From positions 19,584-83,583 of the IMG/VR virus record IMGVR_UViG_3300021963_005690: a stretch of 64,000 nucleotides of DNA. One strand, 5' to 3'. Source of the stretch: a virus. This document shows, one piece after another, positions 6,261 to 49,764 of this stretch. Each line of letters opens with the position of its first letter. The stretch's first letter is position 1. The notes beneath the pieces are model-generated. The model searched no databases. It was not told where the DNA came from and saw only the letters and a list, made by a program, of their open reading frames with translations. The position numbers and the translations under genes were made by a program.

Positions 6261-6337
6261 TGGCATCCCCGGACCGAATTGAACGGCCAACCTTTGAGTT
6301 TGGAGCTCACTGCTCTGCCTAATTGAGCTACGGAGAC
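6261..6337 (-). tRNA. tRNA-Trp(CCA)
   Basis: cloverleaf, loop CTCCAAA, G73, encoded CCA. Confidence 0.9.
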
Positions 6338-6340
6338 ATA

Positions 6341-6955
6341 TTACTTTTGTTTTCTAGGCATACCACCTTTTTTCCAGCCTAGATTTTCATATTCTAAGAG
6401 TTCGTTTTTATCTATGCGTTTGGCACAATTACCGTTATTAACCAGTATTTTACCTAAATTTGCTTCAGCTACTTTAGTATTATGTGCATCAGACCTAGAC
6501 ATTTTAGCGATTGTCTGCATATGAAGGCGATGTGCTTCAGGATCCTTTTTAGACCAATTATTATCAGAAAGTTTTTTCCTAGTTTTGTCAGTAATTTTTT
6601 GTTTCAATGATGCCTGTCTTTGTTTTTCTTTAGTGGCATCGGTGTGCTTTAATCCAGTAAAGGCTCCCACGATACCTGGATTTCCACCACTGCCTCCTAT
6701 TTTTAAATTATATGATAGAGGATCATTTATTAAATTTTCAGTAACAATTTGTCTTTCTAAATCAAACATTTCAATCTTTGAATTTGCAAAATGCAATATT
6801 TCCACTTTAAAATTCTCATGCCCATATTTTTTTATGGCATGTTTTAAATGTTTGCCGGATCCTAAATAACCATCATTAATATTTGCAGTTTGATGACAAC
6901 CCACATAATATTTATTATTGATTAAATTTGTAGTTCTATATATTATATAATGCAT
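6341..6955 (-). CDS. GIY-YIG homing endonuclease with NUMOD3-like repeats (Seg-like)
   Basis: IIYRTTNLINNKYYVGCH, YLGSG, YNLKIGG, HTDATKEK. Confidence 0.9.
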   Translation of the reverse strand: MHYIIYRTTNLINNKYYVGCHQTANINDGYLGSGKHLKHAIKKYGHENFKVEILHFANSKIEMFDLERQIVTENLINDPLSYNLKIGGSGGNPGIVGAFTGLKHTDATKEKQRQASLKQKITDKTRKKLSDNNWSKKDPEAHRLHMQTIAKMSRSDAHNTKVAEANLGKILVNNGNCAKRIDKNELLEYENLGWKKGGMPRKQK

Positions 6956-6980
6956 AATCTATTTATGCATTTAACAAAAA

Positions 6981-7010
6981 ACCGGTATGCTGCCATTACA
7001 CTAGGGAGAT
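6981..7010 (-). pseudogene. 5' half of a tRNA gene, probably Trp, truncated before the anticodon loop
   Basis: ATCTCCC-TA-GTGT-AATGGCA-GCAT-A-CCGGT then a T run; acceptor strand complementary to the GGGGAT end of the downstream tRNA-Trp. Confidence 0.65.
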
Positions 7011-7015
7011 TTTGT

Positions 7016-7237
7016 TTATAAATTTTTTCTAATACGTTTGAGATATTCTCGTCCAACAAGTCCTTGCTCAATTTCTTCTAATGCAGTTACCATTGGTCCT
7101 GATTTAGTATTGAGGGTAGAACGATGACCACGCTTTAATTCTCTTACTCTTTGTGATGCTATAAGAACTAAATCAAAACGATTACCAACCATGTTTGCGG
7201 CTTCTTCACTTGTATATCTTGCTCTGCTTTGTGACAT
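7016..7237 (-). CDS. rpoZ: RNA polymerase omega subunit homologue
   Basis: AR.T.E.A...VGNRFDLVLIASQRVREL..G ... P.VTALEEI..G. Confidence 0.85.
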   Translation of the reverse strand: MSQSRARYTSEEAANMVGNRFDLVLIASQRVRELKRGHRSTLNTKSGPMVTALEEIEQGLVGREYLKRIRKNL

Positions 7238-7246
7238 ATTTTTCCT

Positions 7247-7387
7247 TTATCTTGTTACTTTTCTAATTAATTTATACCAATAGTATTTGAAACCACGGAA
7301 CACTATGATATCAAAAGTAATTACAGGAGTAACTTCTTTTACAATGTGTCCGTATGCTCTATTGATTACATCTTCACTTTTGCTCAT
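7247..7387 (-). CDS. small hypothetical protein
   Basis: 46 aa, AAGGAG RBS. Confidence 0.65.
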   Translation of the reverse strand: MSKSEDVINRAYGHIVKEVTPVITFDIIVFRGFKYYWYKLIRKVTR

Positions 7388-7402
7388 ACTTACTCCTTTA
7401 TT

Positions 7403-7478
7403 TGGTGGGTCGTGACAGGCTCGAACTGCCGACATTCTGCGTGTAAGGCAGACACTCTACCAACTGAGTTAACGACCC
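7403..7478 (-). tRNA. tRNA-Val(TAC)
   Basis: TCTGC-CTTACAC-GCAGA; CCA end. Confidence 0.95.
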
Positions 7479-7483
7479 GATTT

Positions 7484-7663
7484 TTAACCACCTTGGTTAC
7501 TATCTTTAACTTCTGATTGACTAGCAATTTTTTCAAATGCTTCATCTTCATTCTTTTGATCCTCAATTATTCTTGGATCAGGCTTACGAAAGATATTATC
7601 CCAGTTGTTATTAAACGTTTTTAAATCAACACTATAGGGTCTTGGTAAGCTACCTTTACTCAT
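7484..7663 (-). CDS. small hypothetical protein (MSKGSLPRPYSVD...NWDNIF)
   Basis: 59-aa ORF read manually; ATGA-coupled to the upstream ORF. Confidence 0.65.
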   Translation of the reverse strand: MSKGSLPRPYSVDLKTFNNNWDNIFRKPDPRIIEDQKNEDEAFEKIASQSEVKDSNQGG

Positions 7664-7827
7664 TTACTATTATCCTTACGAGAACTTGTACGTGAATTGC
7701 TTTTTTCAATCTCAACATAACTACGAATAAAATCCCCACGTACATGTGCATCACGAATTAGTGTTGCCGCACGTTTAACTGCTTTAGGGATTTTAACTGC
7801 CCTTGAATCATAACCTCTACATGTCAT
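7660..7827 (-). CDS. small basic hypothetical protein (MTCRGYDSRAVKIPK...)
   Basis: 55-aa ORF with AAGGAAA RBS. Confidence 0.6.
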   Translation of the reverse strand: MTCRGYDSRAVKIPKAVKRAATLIRDAHVRGDFIRSYVEIEKSNSRTSSRKDNSK

Positions 7828-7850
7828 ACTATTTCCTTTTTAAAAATTAT

Positions 7851-7927
7851 TGGTCGGAATACAAGGATTCGAACCTTGGACCTCTTGCTCCCAAAGCAAG
7901 CGCACTACCAGGCTGTGCTACACTCCG
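7851..7927 (-). tRNA. tRNA-Pro(TGG)
   Basis: CTTGC-TTTGGGA-GCAAG; CCA end. Confidence 0.95.
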
Positions 7928-7929
7928 AA

Positions 7930-8079
7930 TTAACTTGGTATTATATGCGGTATATATGGAACATTACGTGGACCATGTCGTTGTTCAAGTAGTTTTTTAG
8001 CTTCTTGCACATTTGGTGCGTACACTTTGTCCTTCTTATCACCTTCCGGTGTTCTTACTGTTGCTTCATACATTGGCAT
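7930..8079 (-). CDS. small hypothetical protein (MPMYEATVRTPEG...)
   Basis: 49-aa ORF, AGGAG RBS. Confidence 0.65.
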   Translation of the reverse strand: MPMYEATVRTPEGDKKDKVYAPNVQEAKKLLEQRHGPRNVPYIPHIIPS

Positions 8080-8093
8080 ATAATTCTCCTATT

Positions 8094-8168
8094 TGGATGC
8101 GGGGGACGGATTCGCACCGCCGATCTTCAGGTTATGAGCCTGATGAGTTACTACTTCTCCACCCCGCG
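8094..8168 (-). tRNA. initiator tRNA-fMet(CAT)
   Basis: CGCGGGG start, C1:A72 mismatch, loop CTCATAA. Confidence 0.85.
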
Positions 8169-8170
8169 GT

Positions 8171-8381
8171 AATTAGTGAGACTGCTACTACACCACATAG
8201 CCCAATCTCTGAGTTGTTACACTGTCCATAACATTTATTCTTTTGGAAAGGTGTTATACCTCACCTAATGCGTTCCCGCCACTCCTTCACAGAGTACAGA
8301 TGGTCAATGCACTACATACCTAGCACTTTCTTTGGTGACTGCCCCACCCACTTTATAACGTTAAAGTGTAAACGGGTTTCT
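8171..8381 (-). ncRNA. putative structured ncRNA, copy A (trailer of tRNA-Ala)
   Basis: shares ordered sequence blocks and compensated hairpins with 11818-12012. Confidence 0.65.
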
Positions 8382-8457
8382 TGGTGGAGGAGACAGGGAT
8401 CGAACCTGCGACCTACTGGTTGCAAACCAGTCGCTCTCCCAACTGAGCTACACCCCC
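8382..8457 (-). tRNA. tRNA-Ala(TGC)
   Basis: ACTGG-TTTGCAA-CCAGT; G3:U70. Confidence 0.95.
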
Positions 8458-8466
8458 TAAATATTT

Positions 8467-8551
8467 TGGTGCCCTAGGTCGGACTCGAACCGACACATAT
8501 TTCTACGCCAGAACCTAAATCTGGTGCGTCTACCAATTTCGCCACCAGGGC
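8467..8551 (-). tRNA. tRNA-Leu(TAG)
   Basis: CCAGA-TTTAGGT-TCTGG, long variable arm. Confidence 0.95.
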
Positions 8552-8614
8552 ATTTAACTATTATATTAGAAAACTATTTATCTGTCTAGTACTTTTGGGT
8601 AGCTAAATAAATTT

Positions 8615-8893
8615 ATGCTACAAAAGAAAGAACGTATACCTCTTAACCTACGCAGTAGAGTTATTGAAAGGGACGGTAAATGGTGTGTCTATTGTGATGA
8701 AGACTTGTCCGATAAAGAAATACACATGGATCATGTTATTGCTGAATCTAAAGGTGGAGAAACCACATACAACAATCTTCAAGTAACTTGTAGAAAATGT
8801 AATCTTGCTAAAGGTGTATTAACTGAATCAGAATTTGTTGACCAGTTAAGAACCAGAGCAATGAACATTTTAAATAGAATTGGAGCGGGATAG
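8615..8893 (+). CDS. small HNH endonuclease
   Basis: CVYC...DHVI..SKGG.T..NNLQVTCRKCN..KG. Confidence 0.9.
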   Translation: MLQKKERIPLNLRSRVIERDGKWCVYCDEDLSDKEIHMDHVIAESKGGETTYNNLQVTCRKCNLAKGVLTESEFVDQLRTRAMNILNRIGAG

Positions 8894-8955
8894 CGGATTC
8901 GAACCGCTGACGAACAGCTTGGAAGGCTGACACTCTACCCCTGAGTTAATCCCGC
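8881..8955 (-). tRNA. tRNA-Gly(TCC)
   Basis: CAGC-CTTCCAA-GCTG; U73. Confidence 0.95.
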
Positions 8956-8960
8956 AAATT

Positions 8961-9038
8961 TGGAGCACAGAGTGAGATTTGAACTCACGGTTTTACGGAT
9001 TTGCAATCCGTCGCATTTGACCACTCTGCCACCTGTGC
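8961..9038 (-). tRNA. tRNA-Cys(GCA)
   Basis: ACGGA-TTGCAAA-TCCGT; U73. Confidence 0.95.
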
Positions 9039-9051
9039 ATATAAATACATT

Positions 9052-9597
9052 ATGAAATATTATTCACCTATCTATTTAGAAAATATTAAAATCATTCAAG
9101 AAAAGATTTTTGATGTATTTCCTAAAACTGAATTATCAAGTAAAGAAAACTTATTCTATATACCTGATAATCTAAAATTATTTTTTGATATACCAGAATT
9201 AAAATCTGAATTAGATAATATGAACTGGTCACAATATGTTCATTCGTTTGGTTTTTATGTAATTAACAAAACATACGGCACACCTATACATATTGATAGT
9301 GGTAATAGTCTTTATAGTTTTAATATACCAATACTAAATTGTAAAAATACTTTTGTTAATTTTTACAAAACAGATAAAGAACCTGTAAAGAAATCATATG
9401 TTACATATAACAAGATTATAGACTATTATAGTTTTAATCCTACCGAATGTGTATTACAAGATAAATTAGAAATGACCACTCCACATGTCATAAAAGTCAA
9501 AGAGGTACATAATGTAACTAACATTAACGATTTACCACGCATTACATTATTAATCAGATTAAAAAAAGAAATTAACTTGGATTACTTATTTCAATGA
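9052..9597 (+). CDS. hypothetical protein, probable cupin / 2OG-Fe(II)-like fold
   Basis: PIHID...H.V.N....R pattern; TATAAATA directly upstream. Confidence 0.6.
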   Translation: MKYYSPIYLENIKIIQEKIFDVFPKTELSSKENLFYIPDNLKLFFDIPELKSELDNMNWSQYVHSFGFYVINKTYGTPIHIDSGNSLYSFNIPILNCKNTFVNFYKTDKEPVKKSYVTYNKIIDYYSFNPTECVLQDKLEMTTPHVIKVKEVHNVTNINDLPRITLLIRLKKEINLDYLFQ

Positions 9598-10031
9598 AAT
9601 ATATAGAATACTTAGATTTACCACCAGTACCCGAAAACTTAATTGAATCAATTACGGATATCATTAATAAGCCACCTAAAGCTTATAGTACAGTACCGGC
9701 TGAATATAACTTTTTCAAAACTAGAAATGTTAATGATGATTTAGCAGAATGGTTACAATCTATAGTTGAATACAAAATATATCCACAATATCAATTAATA
9801 TATAACGGTTTACCTATACATATAGATAACGGTAACAGAATTAATGCCTATAACTATTTGTTAGATACAGGAGGAAAAAATGTTAAAACGGTTGTGTATA
9901 ATGAAAACTACAAACCATTACAAATTGAACAGCTTGAGCTAAAAAGATGGCACCGTATTAATACGGGCATGTTACACGGTGTTCATGGAATTGAACCTGA
10001 TAAAGTTAGAGTTGCTATTAGCATAACATAA
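9594..10031 (+). CDS. hypothetical protein, probable cupin / 2OG-Fe(II)-like fold
   Basis: PIHID...NYLLDTGG...HGV....RVAISI. Confidence 0.6.
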   Translation: MKYIEYLDLPPVPENLIESITDIINKPPKAYSTVPAEYNFFKTRNVNDDLAEWLQSIVEYKIYPQYQLIYNGLPIHIDNGNRINAYNYLLDTGGKNVKTVVYNENYKPLQIEQLELKRWHRINTGMLHGVHGIEPDKVRVAISIT

Positions 10032-10050
10032 TCATTTATTTGTGCATAAA

Positions 10051-10135
10051 GCATATTGAAACACACTAACTACCTTGGTATGTACTAAAGTTCAATGAAC
10101 CGCTACGACCCAATCTTTAATGTATTTCAATATGC
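10051..10135 (-). ncRNA. long-stem RNA element 1
   Basis: 19-bp closing stem GCATATTGAAATACATTAA/TTAGTGTGTTTCAATATGC with G:U pairs only on the minus strand. Confidence 0.6.
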
Positions 10136-10332
10136 TCTGCATCCCCCGGCGGTAATTATAGTACAGAAAGATATGACGCTATCATACCCCTCACTCGTAC
10201 CTTCCACCCGCTTCCCGACAGGGACCGTTCTCGCATTGCTAGCGGCCTTTGGGTTTAAAGACTACCACCCGTAGTTGTCACACTACTTCTCATCGTGCGG
10301 GTCACACTATCCGAAGACACTCGGAACGTTCT
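10136..10332 (-). ncRNA. putative ~195-nt GC-enriched structured RNA
   Basis: hairpins TCCGAG-TGTC-TTCGGA, GTAGT-GTGACA-ACTAC, GGGT...ACCC; GC-rich relative to flanks. Confidence 0.5.
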
Positions 10333-10346
10333 TTTATAAATACAGT

Positions 10347-10529
10347 ATGGAACTACAAAACTGTATTGATGTTGTTGAAAAGTTGTTGCGTCAAAACAAC
10401 CGTAAATATAAAGATAGCCACGAACAATTATTATATGAACGAGGCTACCTTACTGGTTTACTAGCTAGGATGATGAGTGATGACCCTCACATTTTACATC
10501 AAGTCATAAACAAAGCAAACCATCGCTAA
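10347..10529 (+). CDS. small hypothetical protein (MELQNCIDVV...)
   Basis: 60 aa after TATAAATA. Confidence 0.65.
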   Translation: MELQNCIDVVEKLLRQNNRKYKDSHEQLLYERGYLTGLLARMMSDDPHILHQVINKANHR

Positions 10530-10530
10530 T

Positions 10531-10622
10531 TGGTGGAGACGGTGAGATTCGAACTCACGGTACATATTACTACATACGACAGGTTAGCAACCTGCTGCCT
10601 TAGGCCACTCGGCCACGTCTCC
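10531..10622 (-). tRNA. tRNA-Ser(GCT)
   Basis: CAGG-TTGCTAA-CCTG, long variable arm. Confidence 0.95.
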
Positions 10623-10628
10623 TATGTT

Positions 10629-10706
10629 TGGTGCCTCCACCTGGACTCGAACCAGGAACCTAGCGATTATGAGTCGCTTGCAACTAACCAATTGTGCTAT
10701 AGAGGC
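10629..10706 (-). tRNA. tRNA(CAT), probably Ile2 (lysidine type)
   Basis: AGCGA-CTCATAA-TCGCT, Ile2-like anticodon arm. Confidence 0.8.
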
Positions 10707-10711
10707 AATAA

Positions 10712-11326
10712 TCAAATACTCAACTCAAATTTATTTCGTTGAATATTTATTATATCTTGTTTTTGAACTACTAACAACTGTTCTGGGAATTGTACCCACT
10801 TTGCGGTGTCTCGTTCAGTCTTATATCCTTTGACTTCTACATACACTTTTTTTTCAGGCAAATAGAAATCAGGGAAATATGTTCTGGAGCCATTCCATTC
10901 ATACGGAAATCCTTTTGTATTCCTAATACAAGGAATATTATTAGCGAGACACCATTTATAAAAATTAAGTTCCCAATTTCCTTGAAATTTAATTCCATTA
11001 AAAATAATTTGCTTTACTCTTCCCCTATTAGAAGATGAGTATGCTTCTGGATTATTTTCAACTGCTTGTTTCATACTTGATGACAGTTTATTTTTAGATT
11101 CGTCAGACCAAACTCTATTACGATTTGAATTACGAATAATATCTCTGCCTGTTTCCGTCATAGGAGTAGCAGTGCCTTTAATAAACTGATTACTACCTTG
11201 TTTCCCTAACATCCCCATTGATGCTTTTTTAACTTTAGCATCAGGATTAGATTTACAATACAGTTCGTGTTGAGCCTTACTGTTGGGTGATTTTTCATCA
11301 CGGTTACAAAAATTACATTTTAACAT
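10712..11326 (-). CDS. putative homing endonuclease, PD-(D/E)xK type with NUMOD3-like segment
   Basis: N-terminal CxxC..HxxxC, WSDESKNKLS, YFPDFYLP...VEVKGY. Confidence 0.8.
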   Translation of the reverse strand: MLKCNFCNRDEKSPNSKAQHELYCKSNPDAKVKKASMGMLGKQGSNQFIKGTATPMTETGRDIIRNSNRNRVWSDESKNKLSSSMKQAVENNPEAYSSSNRGRVKQIIFNGIKFQGNWELNFYKWCLANNIPCIRNTKGFPYEWNGSRTYFPDFYLPEKKVYVEVKGYKTERDTAKWVQFPEQLLVVQKQDIINIQRNKFELSI

Positions 11327-11369
11327 AAATGTATTTAGTCCTAAAGTTCATTGCTCTAACCTTCTATTT

Positions 11370-11454
11370 TGGTGCGAGTGCCCGGAATCGAACCGGGATG
11401 CCGTTAAGCGAGAGATTTTAAGTCTCTTGTGTCTACCTATTTCACCACACTCGC
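11370..11454 (-). tRNA. tRNA-Leu(TAA)
   Basis: AGAGA-CTTAAAA-TCTCT. Confidence 0.95.
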
Positions 11455-11466
11455 ATTATTGTTATC

Positions 11467-11495
11467 ATTATATATCATACAATGATTGTAGTCAA
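11467..11495 (-). promoter_or_regulatory. internal sigma70-type promoter of the tRNA array
   Basis: TTGACT-17 nt-TATAAT. Confidence 0.7.
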
Positions 11496-11514
11496 ATAAT
11501 TTGGTCAACTAACT

Positions 11515-11589
11515 TGGCGGTCCCAGCGGGTAACGATCCCGCTCCTCATGCGTGACAGGCATGTATGCGTCCATGAACACTTTGAGACC
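11515..11589 (-). tRNA. tRNA-Asp(GTC)
   Basis: CATGC-CTGTCAC-GCATG; G73; atypical T-loop ATCGTTA. Confidence 0.88.
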
Positions 11590-11662
11590 TAACACTGAAT
11601 AGGACACCCCTTTGGCCTAGGTCGTTTAAGAGTACGCCTGCCCAGCGACTCTCCTATATTCT

Positions 11663-11747
11663 TGGTGGAGATTACTGGGATCGAACCAGTCGTGCTATAA
11701 AGCGGCGGATTTACAATCCACTGCATCACCATTGATGCTTCATCTCC
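11663..11747 (-). tRNA. tRNA-Tyr(GTA)
   Basis: GTGGA-TTGTAAA-TCCGC, long variable arm. Confidence 0.93.
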
Positions 11748-11817
11748 AAGATGAGTTACGGTTGCAAGACCTAGTGTCTCATTACTGAGAGAAGTGTCAG
11801 GGCGATGTAACTCAAAA

Positions 11818-12012
11818 AATTAGTATAAGCTACTGGGTTCCACGCCAGCCCTTAATTGAGCGGTTACTCTGTCCATCTCTTTTATTCTAACGTCTGTGTG
11901 CAGAGAGATACTGCCTATCAGATTCAGAGGATTTCCCTCGCTAACGGTCTTCTGCCACCGGAACTCTATCGCTATTCAAACGCTATTTTAACGAAAATAG
12001 TAACGGGATTCT
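11818..12012 (-). ncRNA. putative structured ncRNA, copy B (trailer of tRNA-Glu)
   Basis: paralogue of 8171-8381. Confidence 0.65.
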
Positions 12013-12013
12013 T

Positions 12014-12088
12014 TGGAAGAGCATAGGAGAATCGAACTCCTCTTCTTAGGATGAAAACCTAATGTCCTAACCGATAGACGAATGCTCC
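12014..12088 (-). tRNA. tRNA-Glu(TTC)
   Basis: TTAGG-TTTTCAT-CCTAA. Confidence 0.92.
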
Positions 12089-12090
12089 AT

Positions 12091-12216
12091 GTTATTAGTT
12101 TTGCTGACGCACTATTTGCTATGCTCAACGGAATTGCCAGCTGGACGTACCGTTTATATACATAGTTAGTTAGAGTTGACGTTTACTCAGGCGCTTACAT
12201 CAGCAAAACTAATAAC
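12091..12216. repeat. 17-bp perfect inverted repeat enclosing about 90 nt
   Basis: GTTATTAGTTTTGCTGA ... TCAGCAAAACTAATAAC. Confidence 0.8.
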
Positions 12217-12219
12217 ACA

Positions 12220-12425
12220 CTATATGAAAACACACTATGGGAACTACACTTCTAATATAAGACCGTCTCTTATATTTTTAGTTTTGTCATTACTTCCTAC
12301 ATACTCCGTCGCTTCTCCAGAGCCTAAGCCCCTATTTCATGTACTTAGCTTGAGCGTGGGCGGCCCCACAGTCCTCGCCTTAAGTACCTAACGGTGTAGG
12401 TAACCCTTAATATGTTTACATATAG
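12220..12425 (-). ncRNA. long-stem multibranch RNA element 2
   Basis: closing stem CTATATGTAAACATATTA/TAGTGTGTTTTCATATAG; inner CTACAC/GTGTAG, GTACTTA/TAAGTAC, GTGGG/CCCAC, AATATAAGA/TCTTATATT. Confidence 0.6.
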
Positions 12426-12462
12426 TCCCTGTAACTTAAACAGGGCTATATGATAACTTAAC

Positions 12463-12475
12463 TTTTTAAAGAACT
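12463..12475 (-). promoter_or_regulatory. boxA-like antitermination element
   Basis: AGTTCTTTAAAAA versus rrn boxA TGCTCTTTAACA, just downstream of tandem promoters. Confidence 0.55.
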
Positions 12476-12512
12476 CTTTGCAACTGACTCTATCGTTTGT
12501 TGCTATGTGTCT

Positions 12513-12541
12513 ATTATAACACCGTTTTGATTAATTGTCAA
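12513..12541 (-). promoter_or_regulatory. sigma70 promoter (P2 of tandem pair)
   Basis: TTGACA-17 nt-TATAAT with extended TG. Confidence 0.9.
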
Positions 12542-12594
12542 ATTCTTTTTTGTGTCTCTGTTTCCAAGAACTTCTTCAATCAATCTATACATAG

Positions 12595-12623
12595 AGTATA
12601 GCACTATTTGGATTTATTGTCAA
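12595..12623 (-). promoter_or_regulatory. sigma70 promoter (P1 of tandem pair)
   Basis: TTGACA-17 nt-TATACT with extended TG. Confidence 0.85.
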
Positions 12624-12652
12624 ACTATTAGTTGTTGTAAATAAACAACATT

Positions 12653-12727
12653 TGGTCCGGGGTACAGGAATCGAACCTGTATTGACTGCTTAGAAGGCAG
12701 CTGTATTATCCATTATACTAACCCCAG
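12653..12727 (-). tRNA. tRNA-Arg(TCT)
   Basis: CTGC-CTTCTAA-GCAG. Confidence 0.93.
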
Positions 12728-12796
12728 ATAAATTTTCAACTTGTCTCTATTGAAGTAGAATTTTGATTTATTGTCAACCTATTACTAAATATCTCT

Positions 12797-13426
12797 ATGA
12801 TATCATTGTTAAACTTACCCAAACCATCTAATGCGGTGTTAGATATGGTCACTCATAACATCAATACATTACAAATAAACAACTCCTCAAAAAAATATTT
12901 TGATGGTTCTCAACACAATAAAATGAACTGTATTGCAGGTCAAACCTTTGTATGCGATATTCCTATATATTTACAACTTTTTAAAGAGTTTAAATTTTAT
13001 ATTACTGATAGATTTCAAGCTAGTATTGGCATATTTAAAAATGTTGATACTAGTAAACTATCGTACTTGCCACCGCATATTGATAATGTACGAACACTAA
13101 GTTTAAATTATGTTATTAGTGAAGGAGGAAAAAATGTATTGACTACTATGTACAAAACTACTGCACAAAACGTAACTAAAAGTGCTATTCAAATGGAACT
13201 ATATGACAATTTAGAAATAGATGTTGCAGTAAAAACAGTTGCTAATAACTGGTATGCAATAGATATTCAAAACTATCATAGTGTTGACCATATTGAAAAT
13301 CAACGTGTTATTCTAACGTTAAGTTTTAATCATATAAACTATGATTATTTTACAAGCAAATATGAACATTTGCTTGTAAAAGATTGGCTCCCCAGGATGG
13401 GATCGAACCACCGACACCCTGATTAA
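12797..13426 (+). CDS. hypothetical protein, cupin / 2OG-Fe(II)-like; C-terminus runs antisense into tRNA-Asn
   Basis: PPHID...LNYVISEGG.NV.T...HSV....R; same family as 9594-10031. Confidence 0.65.
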   Translation: MISLLNLPKPSNAVLDMVTHNINTLQINNSSKKYFDGSQHNKMNCIAGQTFVCDIPIYLQLFKEFKFYITDRFQASIGIFKNVDTSKLSYLPPHIDNVRTLSLNYVISEGGKNVLTTMYKTTAQNVTKSAIQMELYDNLEIDVAVKTVANNWYAIDIQNYHSVDHIENQRVILTLSFNHINYDYFTSKYEHLLVKDWLPRMGSNHRHPD

Positions 13427-13460
13427 CAGTCAGGTGCAACTGCCGCTGTGCTACTGGGGA
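13385..13460 (-). tRNA. tRNA-Asn(GTT)
   Basis: CCTGA-CTGTTAA-TCAGG. Confidence 0.95.
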
Positions 13461-13554
13461 ATAAATTTGGGGCAGGGTTCAAACCTACCGCGTTACATAC
13501 CGTTATCGTTGTAACTCTGCACTATGTTATAGCCATTGTGTGCCTGCGTTTTCT

Positions 13555-13629
13555 TGGTGCCCCAGGTTAGAATCGAACTAACTACCTACCGCTTACAAGG
13601 CGGGTGCTCTACCAGTGAGCTACAAGGGC
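13555..13629 (-). tRNA. tRNA-Thr(TGT)
   Basis: CCGC-CTTGTAA-GCGG. Confidence 0.93.
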
Positions 13630-13654
13630 ATTGTTTATTTAATAGTATTATACA

Positions 13655-14215
13655 CTAGCTTAATAATATTCTACTATGTTTTGGAACACCTGCTAACAAA
13701 TATTCCATTTGGTCAGCAAGAATTGTTCTATGTTGTAGAATCATATTCTCGTAGTGATTAGGTACATAAGGTGTATATAGTAATTCCATACGCACTTCTT
13801 TCAAACTCTTATGTCCTTTTTTGCTGTTACAATCTTTACATGCTGTAACAACATTCATCCAAGTGTTTTCACCGCCCTTACTTCTAGGGACAATGTGGTC
13901 ACGACTTAATAGATGATAGTTAGGAAAGTGTTCGCCGCAATAAGCACATACATGTCTATCACGACCAAACAATGTTTTATTAGTTAGTGCTACACATGAG
14001 TGTTTGTATGGATTAAATCCGTGACCTTTGATAGCAATGATACTACTAGCTTCTAAGTAACTTAGTGTACCGTCATTTTGTATGCCACCACGATATCTAG
14101 CCACAATATTACCCATTGACCATGCTATGGCATCTTTTGCTTTATAGGTAATTGCGTCATCATTTGAGATCCATTGCCGGGGAACTCCCGAGATATCTAG
14201 TGCTAATACTGACAC
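13655..14215 (-). CDS. HNH endonuclease (McrA-like family)
   Basis: RD..VCAYCG...SRDHIVPRSKGG..TW.NVVTACKDCNSKKG. Confidence 0.9.
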   Translation of the reverse strand: MSVLALDISGVPRQWISNDDAITYKAKDAIAWSMGNIVARYRGGIQNDGTLSYLEASSIIAIKGHGFNPYKHSCVALTNKTLFGRDRHVCAYCGEHFPNYHLLSRDHIVPRSKGGENTWMNVVTACKDCNSKKGHKSLKEVRMELLYTPYVPNHYENMILQHRTILADQMEYLLAGVPKHSRILLS

Positions 14216-14265
14216 GACAAACTCCTTAAAAAAAAGATAAATAAGTATATCACAAAGGGTACACT

Positions 14266-14931
14266 ATGTCTATTTACACAGGTAACAATTATAGAAAAAT
14301 TTATGAGTCACACTTTGGTCCCATACCAAAAGACGACCAGGAAAGATCATATGAAATACATCACATTGATGGTAATCGCAAAAATAATGACCCTTCAAAT
14401 CTACAGTGCCTCGCTATTCAAGAGCATTATAACATACATTTTAATCAATCAGATTGGGGCGCATGTTATTTAATTGCTAGAAAAATGAAACTGTCGCCAG
14501 AAGAATTGTCAACCTTATCTAAAAAAGTTAATCAACAAAGAATACAAACAGGCGAACATCAATTCTGTGGGGATAAGAACCCGCAAAAACAAGAATATAA
14601 TCGTATTAAATCATCTAAGAAGATGAAAGCACAATATGAAACAGTTTGGAAAAATAATCCTGAAAACAAAAAAATGCGCTCAGTGTGGGGCAAAAAAGGT
14701 TCTGAATTTATGAAGTCTGCTGAAGGTAGATTACTGGCTTCTAGCAAAACACAATCAAAAAATCCAAATTACGACCATACGATTCTCACATTTGAACACA
14801 CTGAAACAAATACACAATTCACAGGAACTATGTACGACTTTAGAACAAAATTCATGTTACGACAGTCATCAGTGAGTATGGTTGTTGCCGGTAAGCGACA
14901 AACAGTTTCTGGTTGGAAACTTGTCATCTGA
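14266..14931 (+). CDS. HNH homing endonuclease
   Basis: YRKIYE.H.GPIP...EIHHIDGNRKNNDPSNL.CL...EH...H. Confidence 0.9.
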   Translation: MSIYTGNNYRKIYESHFGPIPKDDQERSYEIHHIDGNRKNNDPSNLQCLAIQEHYNIHFNQSDWGACYLIARKMKLSPEELSTLSKKVNQQRIQTGEHQFCGDKNPQKQEYNRIKSSKKMKAQYETVWKNNPENKKMRSVWGKKGSEFMKSAEGRLLASSKTQSKNPNYDHTILTFEHTETNTQFTGTMYDFRTKFMLRQSSVSMVVAGKRQTVSGWKLVI

Positions 14932-14956
14932 CTGTCTACATTTATTTAATGCCAAG

Positions 14957-15031
14957 TGGCGGGTCCTGTAGGAATTGAACCCACATCCCGAAGTTCGAAG
15001 CATCGTATTCTATCCATTGAACTAAGGACCC
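14957..15031 (-). tRNA. tRNA-Arg(TCG)
   Basis: CGATG-CTTCGAA-CTTCG with one U:U mismatch. Confidence 0.85.
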
Positions 15032-15039
15032 GATAAAGG

Positions 15040-15187
15040 TGGGAGCCTAACTATCTTATTGTTAGTAAGCCTCGTTAGATTGTCTCGTATAGGCAAGTTT
15101 ACACACCCGTCAATCATACTATAGTGTCATCACAGTTAACCCCACTGTGACTAGATTGACAGGGACTCAAACCTATCGTCTATCCCA
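15040..15187 (-). ncRNA. putative structured RNA (trailer of tRNA-Gln)
   Basis: TGGGA/TCCCA closure; CCCTGTCAATC/GATTGACGGG; TCACAGT/ACTGTGA. Confidence 0.5.
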
Positions 15188-15191
15188 TAAC

Positions 15192-15265
15192 TGGCAGAGG
15201 GTACAAGAATCGAACTTGTGATCTCGGAATCAAAATCCGATGTTATGCCATTTAACTAACCCCCA
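15192..15265 (-). tRNA. tRNA-Gln(TTG)
   Basis: TCGGA-TTTTGAT-TCCGA. Confidence 0.93.
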
Positions 15266-15285
15266 ATAATCTTGCTAAATAATTG

Positions 15286-15918
15286 ATGTTTAATATTACA
15301 AAAACCCCAATCTTAATTATTTCATCACCTAGAACAGGAAGTTCAGTGTTAGGTTCATATCTACAAACTTTGTGTGACGTGCCTTACTTTAAAGAACCTG
15401 ATTACACCGGCGGCAAAGAAATGACTGACTTTTATGATTATTTCTCTCAGTCAAAAAACTTTATTCTTAAATTCCATTATATCCATTTAAATAGATACAG
15501 AAGCGATATATCCAATTATCTTATTGAAAATTCTTATAAAATAAGAATTAGAAGAAAAAATATTGTTGAACAAATTGCAAGTTTTTACATTGCGACTGAA
15601 AGAGATTTTAAGTGGCATTTTAGAAACACCGATCAACTAAATTTAGTTGACACTCTTAACATTGATATAGCAAAAATTAAACAAAATATTTTATATATTA
15701 AATACGCAAATTATAGATTAAACTCAGCACCTATTAAGTTTGATTTAGACTTATATTACGAAGACTTACCCAAAATAAATGATGTAAATTATTATATTGT
15801 TCCTAAACCTTCTAACTATAATGAGTTGTTATCTACGATAACAGAATTGGTACCGCCACCTGGATTTGAACCAGAGACCTACGCCTTATCAAGGCGGTGC
15901 TCTACCACTGAGCTATAG
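15286..15918 (+). CDS. sulfotransferase-like P-loop protein; C-terminus antisense to tRNA-Ile
   Basis: SSPRTGSS, EP, R.N..EQIAS, YYED. Confidence 0.7.
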   Translation: MFNITKTPILIISSPRTGSSVLGSYLQTLCDVPYFKEPDYTGGKEMTDFYDYFSQSKNFILKFHYIHLNRYRSDISNYLIENSYKIRIRRKNIVEQIASFYIATERDFKWHFRNTDQLNLVDTLNIDIAKIKQNILYIKYANYRLNSAPIKFDLDLYYEDLPKINDVNYYIVPKPSNYNELLSTITELVPPPGFEPETYALSRRCSTTEL

Positions 15919-15922
15919 CGGT
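15848..15922 (-). tRNA. tRNA-Ile(GAT)
   Basis: CGCC-TTGATAA-GGCG. Confidence 0.95.
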
Positions 15923-15926
15923 GAAT

Positions 15927-16001
15927 TGGTGGATGTAAGTAGATTTGAACTACTAACCTATTCCGTATGAAGGAATTGCACTACCCTTGTGCTATACATC
16001 C
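15927..16001 (-). tRNA. elongator tRNA-Met(CAT)
   Basis: ATTCC-TTCATAC-GGAAT. Confidence 0.85.
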
Positions 16002-16002
16002 A

Positions 16003-16079
16003 TGGGGTGCTTGATGGGATTTGAACCCACGCATATCGGAATCACAATCCGAGGTCTTAACCGCTTGACGACAAGCACC
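16003..16079 (-). tRNA. tRNA-His(GTG)
   Basis: TCGGA-TTGTGAT-TCCGA; G-1:C73. Confidence 0.95.
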
Positions 16080-16085
16080 GTATAT

Positions 16086-16177
16086 TGGTAGAAACGGTGA
16101 GATTCGAACTCACGGGACCATTGCTGATCCGTCTGATTTCAAGTCAGGTGCATTAAACCGGGCTCTGCCACGTTTCC
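16086..16177 (-). tRNA. tRNA-Ser(TGA)
   Basis: CTGA-CTTGAAA-TCAG, long variable arm. Confidence 0.95.
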
Positions 16178-16185
16178 TTTTATTA

Positions 16186-16261
16186 TGGTAGGACCAGGGC
16201 GGTTCGAACGCCCGACCAACGGATTAAAAGTCCGCTGCTCTACCGACTGAGCTATGGTCCC
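16186..16261 (-). tRNA. tRNA-Lys(TTT)
   Basis: GCGGA-CTTTTAA-TCCGT. Confidence 0.95.
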
Positions 16262-16267
16262 ATATAT

Positions 16268-16344
16268 TGGTGCGACCGGAAGGACTTGAACCTCCGACTC
16301 CCTATTTCGTAGACAGGTACTCTAATCCACTGAGTTACGGTCGC
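16268..16344 (-). tRNA. tRNA-Arg(ACG), first tRNA of the array
   Basis: CCTGT-CTACGAA-ATAGG. Confidence 0.93.
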
Positions 16345-16425
16345 ATTCTAAAACACACATAGTACACTCTAGTCATCAAAGTTGCCCTCTTGGCCTTATT
16401 TTCCACTATGTATGCTTTAGAATGC
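16343..16425 (-). ncRNA. long-stem RNA element 3
   Basis: 22-bp stem GCATTCTAAAGCATACATAGTG/TACTATGTGTGTTTTAGAATGC with G:U pairs. Confidence 0.6.
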
Positions 16426-16570
16426 CGTGTATCTCTACACGACATGATAGGGTCAATACCCTACCCAGTAGTCTTACTAACATGTTGTCTCCATGCTTTC
16501 ATATATACTGTCCGCCCATTCTATACATTTTGCGCTGTATTACGGCTCTCGTTGCCTATTCACGCTGTCA

Positions 16571-16738
16571 TCAATCAGTGTAAGTCAGTTGGTTAACTTT
16601 CTTAGTAGCCTCATGATGGACTCTAGCACGTTCAAGTTTATTTTCTATCAACTGTGCTACTTGTTCCTTAGTCAAAACATGATTGCTAAACCAATCTTGT
16701 TTGTTTTCAGAAGTTTTGTATTGTATCTGTTCATCCAT
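16571..16738 (-). CDS. 55-aa protein, first gene downstream of the attenuator terminator
   Basis: MDEQIQYKTSENKQDWFSNHVLTKEQVAQLIENKLERARVHHEATKKVNQLTYTD; AGAGAGG RBS. Confidence 0.6.
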   Translation of the reverse strand: MDEQIQYKTSENKQDWFSNHVLTKEQVAQLIENKLERARVHHEATKKVNQLTYTD

Positions 16739-16748
16739 TTATTGTCAA
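16720..16748 (-). promoter_or_regulatory. possible sigma70 promoter overlapping the start of the 55-aa gene
   Basis: TTGACA-17 nt-TACAAT. Confidence 0.55.
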
Positions 16749-16760
16749 ATCCTCTCTGTA

Positions 16761-16799
16761 AAAGCAAAAACCCCTGAGACTTTTTAGTTCCCAGGGGTT
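16761..16799 (-). terminator. intrinsic terminator of the putative attenuator
   Basis: AACCCCTGGGAACT-AAAA-AGTCTCAGGGGTT followed by TTTGCTTTT. Confidence 0.9.
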
Positions 16800-16844
16800 A
16801 GATAAATGTAGTTATGATGTTAACTTGTTACCTAGTCCCCGGGC
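16790..16844 (-). promoter_or_regulatory. antiterminator hairpin, mutually exclusive with the terminator
   Basis: CCC-GGGG-AC-TAGGTAA pairs with TTATCTA-A-CCCC-T-GGG; apical AGTTA/TAACT. Confidence 0.75.
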
Positions 16845-16965
16845 CATGTTCTTGTGAATCATTATTGCCGCGAATACTTGTTGGATATGCTGGTACAAAG
16901 GATACACTGGCTAATGACAGCCACTGTCCGGTATGTTTCAACATGTTACAAGTTTTATTCATCAT
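16828..16965 (-). CDS. putative attenuator leader peptide containing all 20 amino acids
   Basis: MMNKTCNMLKHTGQWLSLASVSFVPAYPTSIRGNNDSQEHGPGTR*; stop codon lies inside the antiterminator 5' arm. Confidence 0.72.
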   Translation of the reverse strand: MMNKTCNMLKHTGQWLSLASVSFVPAYPTSIRGNNDSQEHGPGTR

Positions 16966-17041
16966 AGTCTTTTATTTAGTCCTGGTTTTAAATTAGTGTA
17001 AACAACGGATGTTTTTTACACCTTTTCTCAATTCATGCTGA

Positions 17042-17070
17042 AGTATAGCACGGTTTTGAATTAATGTCAA
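17042..17070 (-). promoter_or_regulatory. sigma70 promoter driving the leader and tRNA array
   Basis: TTGACA-17 nt-TATACT with extended TG. Confidence 0.88.
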
Positions 17071-17114
17071 ACTTTCGTTCGCCCATTTTTGCAATTATTT
17101 TTTAATACTTATTG

Positions 17115-18575: not shown

Positions 18576-18592
18576 TTTTTTATTTGTTGTAG

Positions 18593-19753
18593 TTAAGAAT
18601 ATGTTCCTAAATAATGCCATTTTGTAGCAGTAGGTAAAAACTCTCCATTTTCCATAATACTAGGGATAGAACGGTCTAACATGTTATCGTATGATTTCCA
18701 ATAATATCTCCATTTTGCCTTTAGATCAGCAAGCTCAGGTAACGTTTCAATTATTACATCACCCGGTCGCATATCGCTTTTTATACCCCATGAAGGTTTT
18801 TCTACTTGAAACTTATTTTTATCCCATGTTGAGTACAATACTGTACCTGTCAGGTCACAAAATTTTTGCCACTTGGCATGTCCAACTGTATGACCTTGAC
18901 CAGGCATCTTTTGAATTACATATCTTAAATCTTTGTTAATGTCAAAAAATTTAAAAGTTTTGTATGCCATTTCCCATGCTAACTCTGGCATGTCAGGTGA
19001 CCAATAAAAATACTCAGTACCATTAGGATTGTGAATTGTAGGACTTGATATAACCATTGGCTTATCTTTAAGATTCATATAGACTTTATCGCCGGATTCT
19101 GTTCCTAACGATATTAGTCTAGGTTTATCGATTCCCCACATTAGAGCTACACTTTTTCCTTTATCTAACATCTCTCGTTCACCTGGATCCACCGCAAAGT
19201 TAGCAGACCTAAGCATACTACCTAAAAAGTAACCACCCCTAGGATCTATAAACGAATCTTCTTTTAAAGAATTCATAGCAGATTCATCTAACCAATCTAA
19301 TAATACTATTTTAGTATACGGATGATTTGTTGATACCCATTCAAGCATTGGTTTTATTGTAAAATCCCATTCGCTGTATCGGTTTAATTGTGAAGTATCG
19401 TTTTGATTTGGTTTATGAATATTATTATTTAACGCACTAAAAGGTAGTCTGACTGTTATTTGATCTAACTTAATGTTATTGTTAAGGTAAGTCATCAAAA
19501 TGTTATGACTATCTGAACCACCACTGTAGTTTAGTATAAGATAGTCATACGCATCTCTTAGTTGTAACGCTCGTTGCTTATAGAAAAAATCTAGAGGAAA
19601 TTTTCCTAAATGTTCTCTGTTTACCTTTTCAAAGATATCCTCATGATAAAACCAATATATTGGTTGTTTATTTTTTGAGGCTGCAATGTGCGCTAACATA
19701 CAGCTATAATGTTTTTCTTCTCCTACTAAGTAATATCCATATTTGGTAAACAT
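18593..19753 (-). CDS. PP-loop ATP pyrophosphatase (Asn-synthase-like), paralogue 1
   Basis: RALQLRDAYDYLILNYSGGSDSHN, GIDKP, EYFYWS. Confidence 0.78.
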   Translation of the reverse strand: MFTKYGYYLVGEEKHYSCMLAHIAASKNKQPIYWFYHEDIFEKVNREHLGKFPLDFFYKQRALQLRDAYDYLILNYSGGSDSHNILMTYLNNNIKLDQITVRLPFSALNNNIHKPNQNDTSQLNRYSEWDFTIKPMLEWVSTNHPYTKIVLLDWLDESAMNSLKEDSFIDPRGGYFLGSMLRSANFAVDPGEREMLDKGKSVALMWGIDKPRLISLGTESGDKVYMNLKDKPMVISSPTIHNPNGTEYFYWSPDMPELAWEMAYKTFKFFDINKDLRYVIQKMPGQGHTVGHAKWQKFCDLTGTVLYSTWDKNKFQVEKPSWGIKSDMRPGDVIIETLPELADLKAKWRYYWKSYDNMLDRSIPSIMENGEFLPTATKWHYLGTYS

Positions 19754-49716: not shown

Positions 49717-49764
49717 TACGTATTACCTAAATTATAAATTAATATGTTATGATTATTCATATTT

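Follow-up and report, generated by a model that had tools for sequence, protein, structure and literature searches.

In the enterobacterial leaders of amino-acid operons (trpL, hisL, leuL, pheL, thrL and the multivalent ilv leaders), a promoter, a short translated leader ORF and an intrinsic terminator precede the regulated genes, an antiterminator (2:3) competes with a terminator (3:4), the ORF finishes at region 2, stop codon included, and a timely ribosome favours termination. The phage locus described here is laid out in the same way and may operate in the same way, and no sequence homology to these leaders is claimed. The closest working analogue is the mycobacterial whiB7 uORF, which in M. 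smegmatis holds 19/20 amino acids and responds when most of them are depleted; its composition decides which amino-acid shortages are sensed, and the whiB7 attenuator is activated by knock-down of tRNAs and tRNA synthetases (PMC10274678). The original prediction, which stated that no described attenuator polls the whole tRNA pool, was thus too strong. In the literature, no paper describing such a 20-amino-acid leader switch before phage tRNAs was found.

The locus lies in a 64-kb window (i.e., the whole stretch of DNA that was analysed) of an uncultured giant phage from lakes and estuaries. We propose, with a probability of about 0.65, that the region ahead of its tRNA genes acts as a leader-peptide transcription attenuator, in which the ribosome signals how fast decoding proceeds overall and so controls whether polymerase reads through into the tRNA operon. 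The arrangement of the sequence suggests that the phage probably transcribes more tRNA genes when ribosomes decode slowly.

Layout of the locus and its relatives

Along the minus strand, promoter P1 is followed by a 45-codon ORF, a terminator, promoter P2 overlapping a 55-aa ORF, a structured RNA and 25 tRNA genes. The first promoter, the 45-codon ORF, the terminator and the 55-aa ORF were all found where the original prediction had placed them. The features are as follows:

17042..17070, minus strand: promoter P1, TTGACA-17-TGcTATACT, near-consensus (11/12 matches, with a TG extension before the second hexamer)
near 17036, minus strand: expected start of the P1 transcript
16996..17021, minus strand: hairpin of the 5' UTR, GTGTAAA...TTTACAC, variable
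16973..16982, minus strand: box GGACTAAATA, the most conserved stretch of the family, ending 7 nt 5' of the ATG
16828..16965, minus strand: leader ORF, 45 codons and TAA, with all 20 amino acids and 33 distinct codons
16876..16953, minus strand: long hairpin within the leader ORF, ACTTGT...ACAAGT, codons 5-30 (-24.6 kcal/mol, z -3.7)
16828..16843, minus strand: region 2, CCCGGGGACTAGGTAA, covering the final codons with the stop and forming the antiterminator's 5' strand
16810..16825, minus strand: small spacer hairpin in the antiterminator loop, holding CATCATA (16818-16812), the complement of the start region TATGATG
16790..16805, minus strand: region 3, TTATCTAACCCCTGGG, which has region 2 (antiterminator) or region 4 (terminator) as its partner
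16761..16799, minus strand: intrinsic terminator, AACCCCTGGGA / TCTCAGGGGTT, then TTTTTGCTTTT (-20.5 kcal/mol, z -5.2)
16720..16748, minus strand: promoter P2, TTGACA-17-TACAAT, beginning 13 nt past the terminator
16571..16738, minus strand: 55-aa ORF with the motif DWF..HVLTKEQ.AQLI, its ATG within the P2 spacer
16345..16567, minus strand: conserved structured RNA between the switch and the first tRNA, with compensatory changes in 28/39 predicted pairs
6261..16344, minus strand: tRNA array of 25 genes, with ORFs and promoters interspersed among them

A search for homologous leaders before tRNA arrays had been proposed with the original prediction, and 72 related loci were found in uncultured viral contigs. 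These provided 55 unique ORF sequences, 52 distinct peptides, 51 unique sequences for the pairing test and 13 representatives below 60% identity. A tRNA gene follows 260-1430 nt downstream in every locus with enough sequence, and the upstream neighbour gene varies among the relatives. In the GenBank phage collection, a sensitive blastn search with the 900-nt region and a tblastn search with the radical SAM protein gave no match, and no cultured relative was found there. The possibility that the leader encodes a RiPP precursor of the adjoining radical SAM enzyme was rejected, as the window and L002 are alone in having the PF04055 gene immediately upstream, the other relatives having unrelated genes there. 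A P1-like promoter (TTGAC-17/18-TAnAnT) was present upstream of 52/55 unique relatives, usually ~75 nt 5' of the ATG. The 5'-UTR hairpin recurs in the alignment as variants of GTGCAAA..TTTGCAC and is absent by deletion in some relatives.

Downstream of the terminator, ARAGORN identified 24 tRNA genes and Rfam one more (11666-11747), in agreement with the expected 25. P2, of the sigma-70 type, is conserved in at least 39/52 relatives, and consensus promoters were found inside the tRNA array, which the original prediction had named as a possible source of basal expression. Given P2 and these promoters, tRNA expression in most of these phages is independent of read-through. Six relatives lack any promoter between the terminator and the downstream block of conserved RNA and tRNAs, which begins 15-25 nt past the T-run; there, read-through is the only way into the operon.

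The 55-aa ORF, whose ATG lies within P2, could be translatable only from transcripts that read through from P1. It is missing in several clades, shows little third-position bias in its substitutions, and had no Pfam or PHROG family in our scans. The structured RNA at 16345..16567 is present in all clades and had no Rfam match at E values up to 10. Matches in four RNA libraries, available as contigs, were mostly to the conserved tRNA-Lys of other organisms. The contigs identical to the window start at or below 16697, weak evidence for P2, and none of them covers the leader, an absence that carries no weight; such contigs cannot show RNA ends. In a relative, a 250-nt contig extends across the leader ORF and resumes past the terminator, possibly through DNA carry-over.

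Pairing of the ORF tail with the terminator

The terminator stem is G+C-rich, 9-11 bp long and followed by TTTTTGCTTTT, and its energy given above is that of the fold without the upstream arm; a simple terminator scan missed 16799-16761, the loop being longer than 8 nt. In nine relatives a C-G pair of the stem is changed to A-U with compensation. The original prediction held that this hairpin and the one formed with the end of the ORF are mutually exclusive, and folding bore this out: with CCCGGGGACTAGGTAA included, 16846-16761 folded into the antiterminator with the terminator absent (-24.9 kcal/mol), and without CCCGGGGACTAGGTAA the terminator formed.

The ORF tail was able to pair with the terminator 5' arm and the preceding 12 nt in 51/51 unique sequences tested, at a mean of -21.0 kcal/mol vs -9.3 for shuffled tails (mean z -4.3), and in the relatives the antiterminator is stronger than the terminator (-11 to -18.5 kcal/mol). 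The extension helix differs on both strands by clade, i.e., TAGGTAA:TTATCTA, GGAATAA:TTATTTT, GTTTCATAGAA:TTTTATGAAAC and GATGAT:ATCGTC. As the MAFFT alignment of ORF tail and terminator (A1) misaligned the long-peptide clade, per-sequence duplex energies and a partner-swap test were used instead, and own partners were found to pair better than swapped ones (permutation p 0.00025). Alignment A2 had 86% of its cells paired, vs 30-45% with the partners slid, and 17 pairs with double changes; the observed values were reached by 0/500 shuffles. The covariation of the antiterminator that the original prediction had proposed to look for was found, between clades and with the terminator 5' arm.

Additional observations concern the RNA itself. 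The stretch CCCGGGG is kept as nucleotides while its frame differs by clade and gives Pro-Gly or Arg-Gly, and since it is conserved though read in different frames, it suggests a constraint at the RNA level. Helices 4-7, within the long ORF hairpin, carry compensatory changes; this hairpin possibly serves as an RNA polymerase pause and synchronising hairpin. The spacer hairpin appears as helix 9 in the covariation analysis, and the pairing of its CATCATA (in the long clade GTTTCATAG) with the start region is recurring yet weak (mean -7.7 kcal/mol, z -1.5). A region 1':2 helix between ATTCGCGG (the SIRG codons) and CCCGGGGA, proposed by RNAalifold, is also weak, with six pairs and a double change in one sequence only. 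Much of the sequence conservation is explained by RNA structure, namely the long ORF hairpin and the G+C stems.

It had also been predicted that a ribosome at the stop masks the antiterminator. This fits the short clades, in which the stop lies inside the helix, and is not literally true of the long-peptide clade, in which the stop lies 15-22 nt downstream of the arm; masking would there have to come from a ribosome in transit. Of the features of a ribosome-mediated transcription attenuator, the locus has a promoter and short leader ORF, an intrinsic terminator before the genes to be regulated, and, within reach of a ribosome on the ORF, an antiterminator incompatible with the terminator.

Coverage and predicted translation of the leader ORF

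The ORF at 16965-16828 encodes the peptide originally given for it, with all 20 amino acids in its first 39 residues, and the count of 33 distinct codons was reproduced. Completeness in a single case is not striking, since 1.0% of 45-residue windows in the phage's own proteins (3-4.5% at 54-58 residues) and 2/91 small ORFs of the 64-kb window also hold the full set; what matters is its conservation across relatives. Amongst the distinct leader peptides (44-59 aa), 48/52 have 20 amino acids and 4/52 have 19, the missing one being Val or Phe. When each alignment column was kept in a shuffle, 27% of the sequences were complete, vs 13/13 of the representatives below 60% identity. When the residues that a sequence has in common with its nearest other representative were fixed, the probability of completing the set was 0.02-0.67 per sequence; 13/13 complete it, and the product is ~1e-11. 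Cys, His, Lys and Phe differ in placement from lineage to lineage. These patterns argue that the leader ORF is kept by selection to hold every amino acid.

A different explanation is that a conventional small gene, equipped with a promoter and a terminator of its own, encodes a functional micro-protein (e.g., a host-directed factor), with the terminator insulating the P2/tRNA operon from P1 and the completeness simply inherited. The strength of its own promoter, its terminator and the separate P2 for the downstream genes would all suit such a gene, as would the conserved motifs KHxGxW and YPTSIRG, where some changes at Arg and Gly are synonymous, and completeness in one sequence is only a 1-in-100 event. 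We regard this explanation as quite unlikely. The main clade has 1781 non-synonymous vs 883 synonymous differences in the leader ORF with a small third-position bias, which is unlike purifying selection on a protein, and the conserved residues coincide with RNA stems. Retention of CCCGGGG across different reading frames also speaks against a protein-level function, the antiterminator covariation would be needless for a plain insulating terminator, completeness persists over ~40-60% sequence divergence, six relatives are without P2, and Pfam and PHROG scans gave no family for the peptide. The drift of the peptide with completeness kept, as the original prediction had expected of an attenuator, was thus observed. 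A possible resemblance of SIRG in the leader peptide to the SecM arrest motif was considered and dropped.

The folding of the locus also raises the possibility that the ORF is not translated and that the P1 transcript acts as a small structured RNA or as a terminator switch controlled by a protein or an RNA. The whole transcript (~270 nt) folds unusually well (z -3.4), its long internal hairpin and other helices covary, and a well-placed Shine-Dalgarno is lacking. We consider this very unlikely, given that the leader frame is open in 55/55 unique ORFs, against averages of 4.4 and 4.2 stops in the two alternative frames, and that ORFs of 44-59 codons across clades are without exception intact and begin at the conserved ATG. 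Retention of all 20 amino acids would serve no purpose in an RNA that is not translated, and the Rfam search of 16300-17200 (E up to 10) gave chance-level matches only (miRNA families; PK-repBA at 20 bits vs a threshold of 45). It gave no T-box match either, and a T-box riboswitch was rejected as a candidate. For the leader-peptide attenuator, the conserved open frame is what suggests that the ORF is translated.

How translation would start is less regular. The absence of a clear Shine-Dalgarno, pointed out in the original prediction, was confirmed, as AGGA sits 14 nt before the ATG, which is not a normal spacing; the ATG itself is conserved and lies in an A-rich unpaired region. The box GGACTAAATA may serve as a ribosome-binding site (AGGA) at an unusual distance, or as a late-promoter-like TAAATA box from which an almost leaderless mRNA would start. 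TAAATA occurs 3-5 nt before the ATG at 9/74 gene starts vs 0.4 expected. This enrichment and the conserved box 7 nt before the ATG would agree with a timing or coupling device that separates early transcripts (from P1, with a long 5' UTR) from late ones (from the TAAATA box, nearly leaderless) or that reports free ribosomes, with completeness a minor matter; the structure also implies that read-through would follow any delay or failure of the first ribosome. Such a device is unlikely in our judgment, as it leaves unexplained both the completeness maintained through divergence and the constant position ahead of the tRNA array.

Among 45-codon windows of the phage itself, the leader ranks within the highest 0.7% for codon diversity, as might be expected from the original prediction. 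Given the peptide, the 33 codons of the window's leader compare with 30.4 expected (p 0.13), which is not significant, and the family mean has a z of +2.5. Codon diversity was rejected as a sign of isoacceptor polling on account of the non-significant value in the window and of the G+C-rich stems, which force several rare codons. The G- and C-ending codons noted in the original prediction are indeed there, and some of the rare ones are imposed by the RNA stems. Altogether, the computable checks that had been proposed with the original prediction (on folding, relatives, covariation, peptide drift and codon diversity) all came out in its favour.

Proposed function and comparison with known systems

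In the proposed mechanism, host RNA polymerase would start at P1 and transcribe the 45-codon ORF. If the first ribosome keeps pace, it would sit on region 2 while regions 3 and 4 emerge, the terminator would form, and the transcript would end at ~16766. A ribosome delayed at any point of the ORF would instead leave region 2 to pair with region 3, a pairing predicted to be more stable than the terminator, and the polymerase would continue through the 55-aa ORF and the structured RNA to the tRNA genes. Since the ORF holds every amino acid, slow decoding of any one of them would be reportable, and possible triggers are starvation, tRNA loss or cleavage, or a general translation defect. In this way the phage would adjust its tRNA supply by feedback, in addition to the basal level transcribed from P2 and from promoters inside the array. 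We infer the translation of the leader ORF, the change of read-through with ribosome speed and the biological trigger.

As modelled, the switch would sense any delay of the leading ribosome and not tRNA supply specifically. A complete lack of ribosome loading would also give read-through, so the design would report translation in general. The leader has no runs of one amino acid and contains all 20, which fits a general sensor and differs from the classical signature. A further reading, which we hold tentatively and at somewhat less than even odds, is that the leader is a homeostat of the whole decoding set, in which at least one codon per amino acid is maintained by selection, such that the loss of any single host tRNA leads the phage to raise transcription of its own near-complete tRNA set. 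This loss could come from anticodon-nuclease defence, the phage's host shut-off or starvation, and the read-through-only 55-aa protein and the so far undescribed structured RNA would be raised simultaneously.

If this reading of the switch is right, the phage directly senses how much decoding the host can support and responds with its own tRNAs. This would link phage tRNA genes to translation stress and tRNA-targeting defences, and the leader would be nature's clearest example of selection on a leader peptide for complete amino-acid coverage and not for a particular sequence. As the promoter is of the sigma-70 type and the terminator is intrinsic, the switch is testable in E. coli or cell-free, with phage culture not needed.

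Other leader systems share some of these features. In antibiotic-responsive leaders of the ermC, cat, vmlR and bmrCD type, as proposed for the phage leader, a ribosome stalled on a short ORF remodels the downstream RNA and switches on expression. Unlike the phage leader, they rely on a drug-bound ribosome at a specific peptide motif, and many act on translation; we know of none that requires a full amino-acid set. T-box riboswitches also sense the state of tRNA and choose between antiterminator and terminator ahead of translation-related genes, but their contact with a single uncharged tRNA is direct, a leader ORF is absent, and the T-box and specifier elements are conserved.

The whiB7/wblC uORF of Actinobacteria is similar in being a uORF of mixed composition at which stalling at many codons leads to antitermination (PMC10274678). 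It differs in that it controls a host transcription-factor gene of the antibiotic and alanine-starvation response and is alanine-enriched, and its completeness is not conserved, the M. tuberculosis uORF being without several amino acids (PMC10274678). Its sequence is unrelated to that of the phage leader, and its regulated product is not tRNAs.

Compared with the enterobacterial leaders, no strong 1:2 anti-antiterminator was found in the phage leader, the candidates being the weak ATTCGCGG:CCCGGGGA helix and the long ORF hairpin. The enterobacterial leaders have runs of one to three amino acids that match the bacterial biosynthetic operon they precede, whereas in the phage leader every one of the 20 amino acids appears one to a few times, and the leader occurs in a phage and precedes tRNA genes.

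Organization of the locus and its relatives

The source is an 83.6-kb IMG/VR virus record with an estimated completeness of ~24%, which points to a very large uncultured phage. The minus-strand order initially proposed, namely a promoter, a 45-codon leader ORF, an intrinsic terminator, a 55-aa gene and 25 tRNA genes, was recovered at the same positions, with 24 tRNA genes called by ARAGORN and one (11666-11747) by Rfam. tRNA-Phe was not found among the 25 tRNAs that the two tools gave together.

Features of the switch and the start of the tRNA operon (window coordinates)
17070-17042, minus: promoter P1, TTGACA-17-TGcTATACT
5'-UTR, ~70 nt, minus, with a hairpin at 17021-16996
16982-16973, minus: motif GGACTAAATA
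16965-16828, minus: leader ORF, 45 codons
16799-16761, minus: intrinsic terminator
16748-16720, minus: promoter P2, TTGACA-17-TACAAT; its spacer contains the ATG of the 55-aa ORF
16738-16571, minus: 55-aa ORF
16567-16345, minus: ~220 nt without a long ORF; conserved structured RNA preceding the tRNA array
11666-11747, minus: tRNA, 82 nt (Rfam, 35 bits; missed by ARAGORN)
11515-11589, minus: tRNA-Asp (ARAGORN; below the Rfam threshold)

Searches with the 55-aa protein identified 22 viral loci, a search with a radical SAM protein gave one further locus containing the leader unit, and a DNA pattern derived from the conserved GGACTAAATA...ATGA start revealed many further loci among the matches listed. 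At least 72 loci were collected in total, which reduce to 55 unique ORF sequences encoding 52 distinct peptides (44-59 residues). None of these leader loci was found in the GenBank phage collection; near-identical sequence is present in public DNA runs annotated as marine, estuary and freshwater metagenomes. Over the whole unit, the nearest relatives are 84-90% identical, and distant ones remain recognizable. A sigma-70-type promoter lies 5' of 52 of the 55 unique sequences, a terminator follows every ORF having downstream sequence, and a same-strand tRNA gene lies 260-1430 nt downstream in every locus with enough sequence, as expected if homologous leaders precede tRNA arrays in related phages. 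The 5'-UTR hairpin carries compensated substitutions among relatives (GTGTAAA/TTTACAC to GTGCAAA/TTTGCAC) and is shortened or deleted in several of them, and is thus not essential to the switch.

Just upstream of the switch (17115-18620, minus) lies a gene for a 501-aa protein with a radical SAM domain (Pfam PF04055), whose closest relatives lie at scattered positions near the tRNA region in related phages, in some cases on the opposite strand. A role of the leader peptide as partner of this enzyme was ruled out, since the upstream gene varies and the radical SAM gene is adjacent only in the window and in one relative (L002). Additionally, a 524,565-base contig (IMGVR_UViG_3300027749_002876) carries two leader units (L011 and L020) ~290 kb apart, each 5' of its own tRNA array and with complete peptides of differing sequence; the contig represents either a very large phage that has two arrays or an assembly chimera. 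Elsewhere in the window (48532-53974, minus), three neighboring proteins of 394, 407 and 778 aa consist of RCC1-type repeats and adjoin a 1725-aa protein with a terminal Peptidase_S74 (endosialidase chaperone) domain, together probably a tail-fiber or host-recognition module.

Reading frame and amino-acid completeness of the leader

All 55 unique sequences are open in the leader frame; the other two frames average 4.4 and 4.2 stops, and neither is open in any sequence. ORF length ranges from 44 to 59 codons across clades with the frame intact in every variant, and the frame is clearly protected. The peptide itself drifts, as the original prediction supposed it might: non-synonymous differences outnumber synonymous ones in the main clade (1781 versus 883), and variability at the third codon position is only 1.6-fold that at the other two. 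A protected frame combined with a drifting peptide would be the expected look of a leader peptide, unlike that of a folded protein.

The window's peptide does contain all 20 amino acids within 39 residues and uses 33 distinct codons. As 1.0% of 45-residue windows in the phage's own proteins are equally complete, as is one more of the 91 small ORFs in the window, a single complete ORF is not very surprising and the case rests on the relatives. All 20 amino acids are present in 48 of the 52 distinct peptides, the remaining four, which belong to one tight clade, lacking only Val or Phe, and in 13 of 13 representatives with less than 60% mutual identity; the conserved coverage foreseen by the original prediction is therefore there. 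Sequences rebuilt by drawing alignment columns independently, with column conservation kept, were complete in only 27% of cases. When residues common with the nearest other representative were fixed, which allows generously for inheritance, and the rest redrawn according to amino-acid usage in the phage, the set was completed with a probability of 0.02-0.67 per sequence, and the product over the 13 was ~1e-11; the tests are not fully independent, and halving the exponent changes nothing. Rare residues also relocate: Cys shifts from position 6 to ~21 in the MMKN(L/I) clade, and among the related viral loci shifted positions are seen for His (L096, L059), Lys (L104) and Phe (L104, L042).

The proposed codon diversity stood in part. 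The leader lies in the top 0.7% of windows, and its GC3 (0.38 versus 0.22 in phage genes) is raised by rare G/C-ending codons, but the codon count is not significantly high given the window's peptide, and RNA stems fix several of these rare codons.

A clear Shine-Dalgarno is missing, as had been cautioned: an AGGA lies 14 nt 5' of the leader ATG, whereas in other genes of this phage the ATG is preceded by AAGGA(G) at 5-9 nt or by a TAAATA box at 3-5 nt. Among 74 ORFs of at least 100 aa, TAAATA ends 3-5 nt before the ATG in 9, versus 0.4 expected; plus-strand examples immediately precede the ATGs at 1984, 9052, 12797 and 15286. The box looks positioned for leaderless or nearly leaderless mRNAs, or alternatively could be a ribosome-binding signal other than Shine-Dalgarno. 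It resembles the T4 late-promoter box, and a nearly leaderless late mRNA may therefore be a second form in which the leader is made.

Mutually exclusive hairpins

The predicted geometry of two competing hairpins proved real in folding. With the last codons included (16846-16761), the minimum-energy structure is the antiterminator, in which CCCGGGG pairs with CCCCTGG and TAGGTAA, stop codon included, with TTATCTA; the terminator is absent. Folding of 16826-16761, which lacks the 20 nt expected to lie under a terminating ribosome, gives the terminator (-20.5 kcal/mol, z -5.2). In 51 of 51 unique sequences the ORF tail finds a strong partner in the terminator 5' arm and the preceding 12 nt, with a mean duplex energy of -21.0 kcal/mol versus -9.3 for shuffled tails (mean z -4.3). 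The relatives' tail duplex is stronger than their terminator hairpin (-11 to -18.5 kcal/mol), and in the window, too, the antiterminator is the more stable hairpin. The switch would also read through without any ribosome loading and would thus report translation in general.

A GGGG:CCCC core is common to the clades, and the extension helix varies on both strands (TAGGTAA:TTATCTA; GGAATAA:TTATTTT or GAATAA:TTATTC; GTTTCATAGAA:TTTTATGAAAC; GATGAT:ATCGTC). The covariation that had been envisaged is present: tails pair better with their own region 3, the terminator 5' arm side, than with the region 3 of another class (one representative per class; permutation p 0.00025). In a 35-sequence alignment, the long ORF hairpin and antiterminator have 86% of cells paired, versus 30-45% with partners slid 1-3 columns, and 17 pairs changed on both sides; 0 of 500 shuffles reach these values. 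The terminator stem has a compensated C-G to A-U change in nine sequences. The CCCGGGG nucleotides are kept, reading Pro-Gly in the main clade and, with a one-base shift relative to the stop, Arg-Gly in another, so the constraint acts on the RNA.

Masking of the antiterminator by a ribosome at the stop, as originally proposed, fits the stop codon's place inside the TAGGTAA:TTATCTA helix, but not the long-peptide clade, where the arm ends 15-22 nt 5' of the stop. A 78-nt hairpin spans codons 5-30 (ACTTGT...ACAAGT, -24.6 kcal/mol, z -3.7) and carries several compensatory changes; it explains the nucleotide-level conservation of the Thr-Cys, Trp and Thr-Ser codons; like the trp 1:2 hairpin, it might hold RNA polymerase until the ribosome arrives. 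A weak helix between the codons of the SIRG peptide motif and region 2 (ORF tail and stop) is possible, as is a stretch complementary to the start region.

Route into the tRNA array and comparison with known attenuators

At least 39 of 52 relatives keep P2, and the tRNA array itself contains additional consensus promoters, as the original prediction had allowed, so read-through adds to basal expression. In six relatives only 15-25 nt separate the T-run from the conserved RNA, leaving no room for a promoter, and the operon is reachable only through the terminator. The 55-aa protein could come only from P1 read-through transcripts, since its ATG lies in the P2 spacer. The ORF (48-55 aa, DWF..HVLTKEQ.AQLI motif) is kept in many relatives and absent in several clades, shows little third-position bias in its substitutions, and has no family match in Pfam or PHROG.

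In all clades the structured RNA occupies the stretch from the switch (or the 55-aa ORF) to the first tRNA. It comprises a GGC-AACGAGA-GCC hairpin, the invariant GGGCGGACAG, two further hairpins and a long closing helix (TCTAAAACATAC...GTGTGTTTTAGA), with compensatory changes in 28 of 39 predicted pairs and no match in Rfam. Expression data came as contigs from four metatranscriptome libraries. Those identical to the window cover only 16506-16697, 3' of the expected P2 start and into the first part of this RNA, and end at 16506-16516, just past its GGGCGG; one contig from a relative covers the leader ORF and picks up again past the terminator. These are weak hints of an active P2 and no evidence on the switch.

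Altogether, architecture and evolution support reading the element as a putative attenuator of a tRNA operon. It shares its parts list with the enterobacterial leader-peptide attenuators and lacks their runs of one amino acid. Closest in proposed mode of action is the whiB7 uORF, where read-through follows when most amino acids, tRNAs or synthetases are depleted and the composition determines what is sensed; the M. smegmatis version contains 19 of 20 amino acids (PMC10274678). The statement that no described attenuator polls the whole tRNA pool was therefore too strong. Full-text literature searches revealed no publication describing control of this kind for phage tRNA arrays. New here is the setting, in a phage and before tRNA genes, together with the evidence that completeness itself is under selection.
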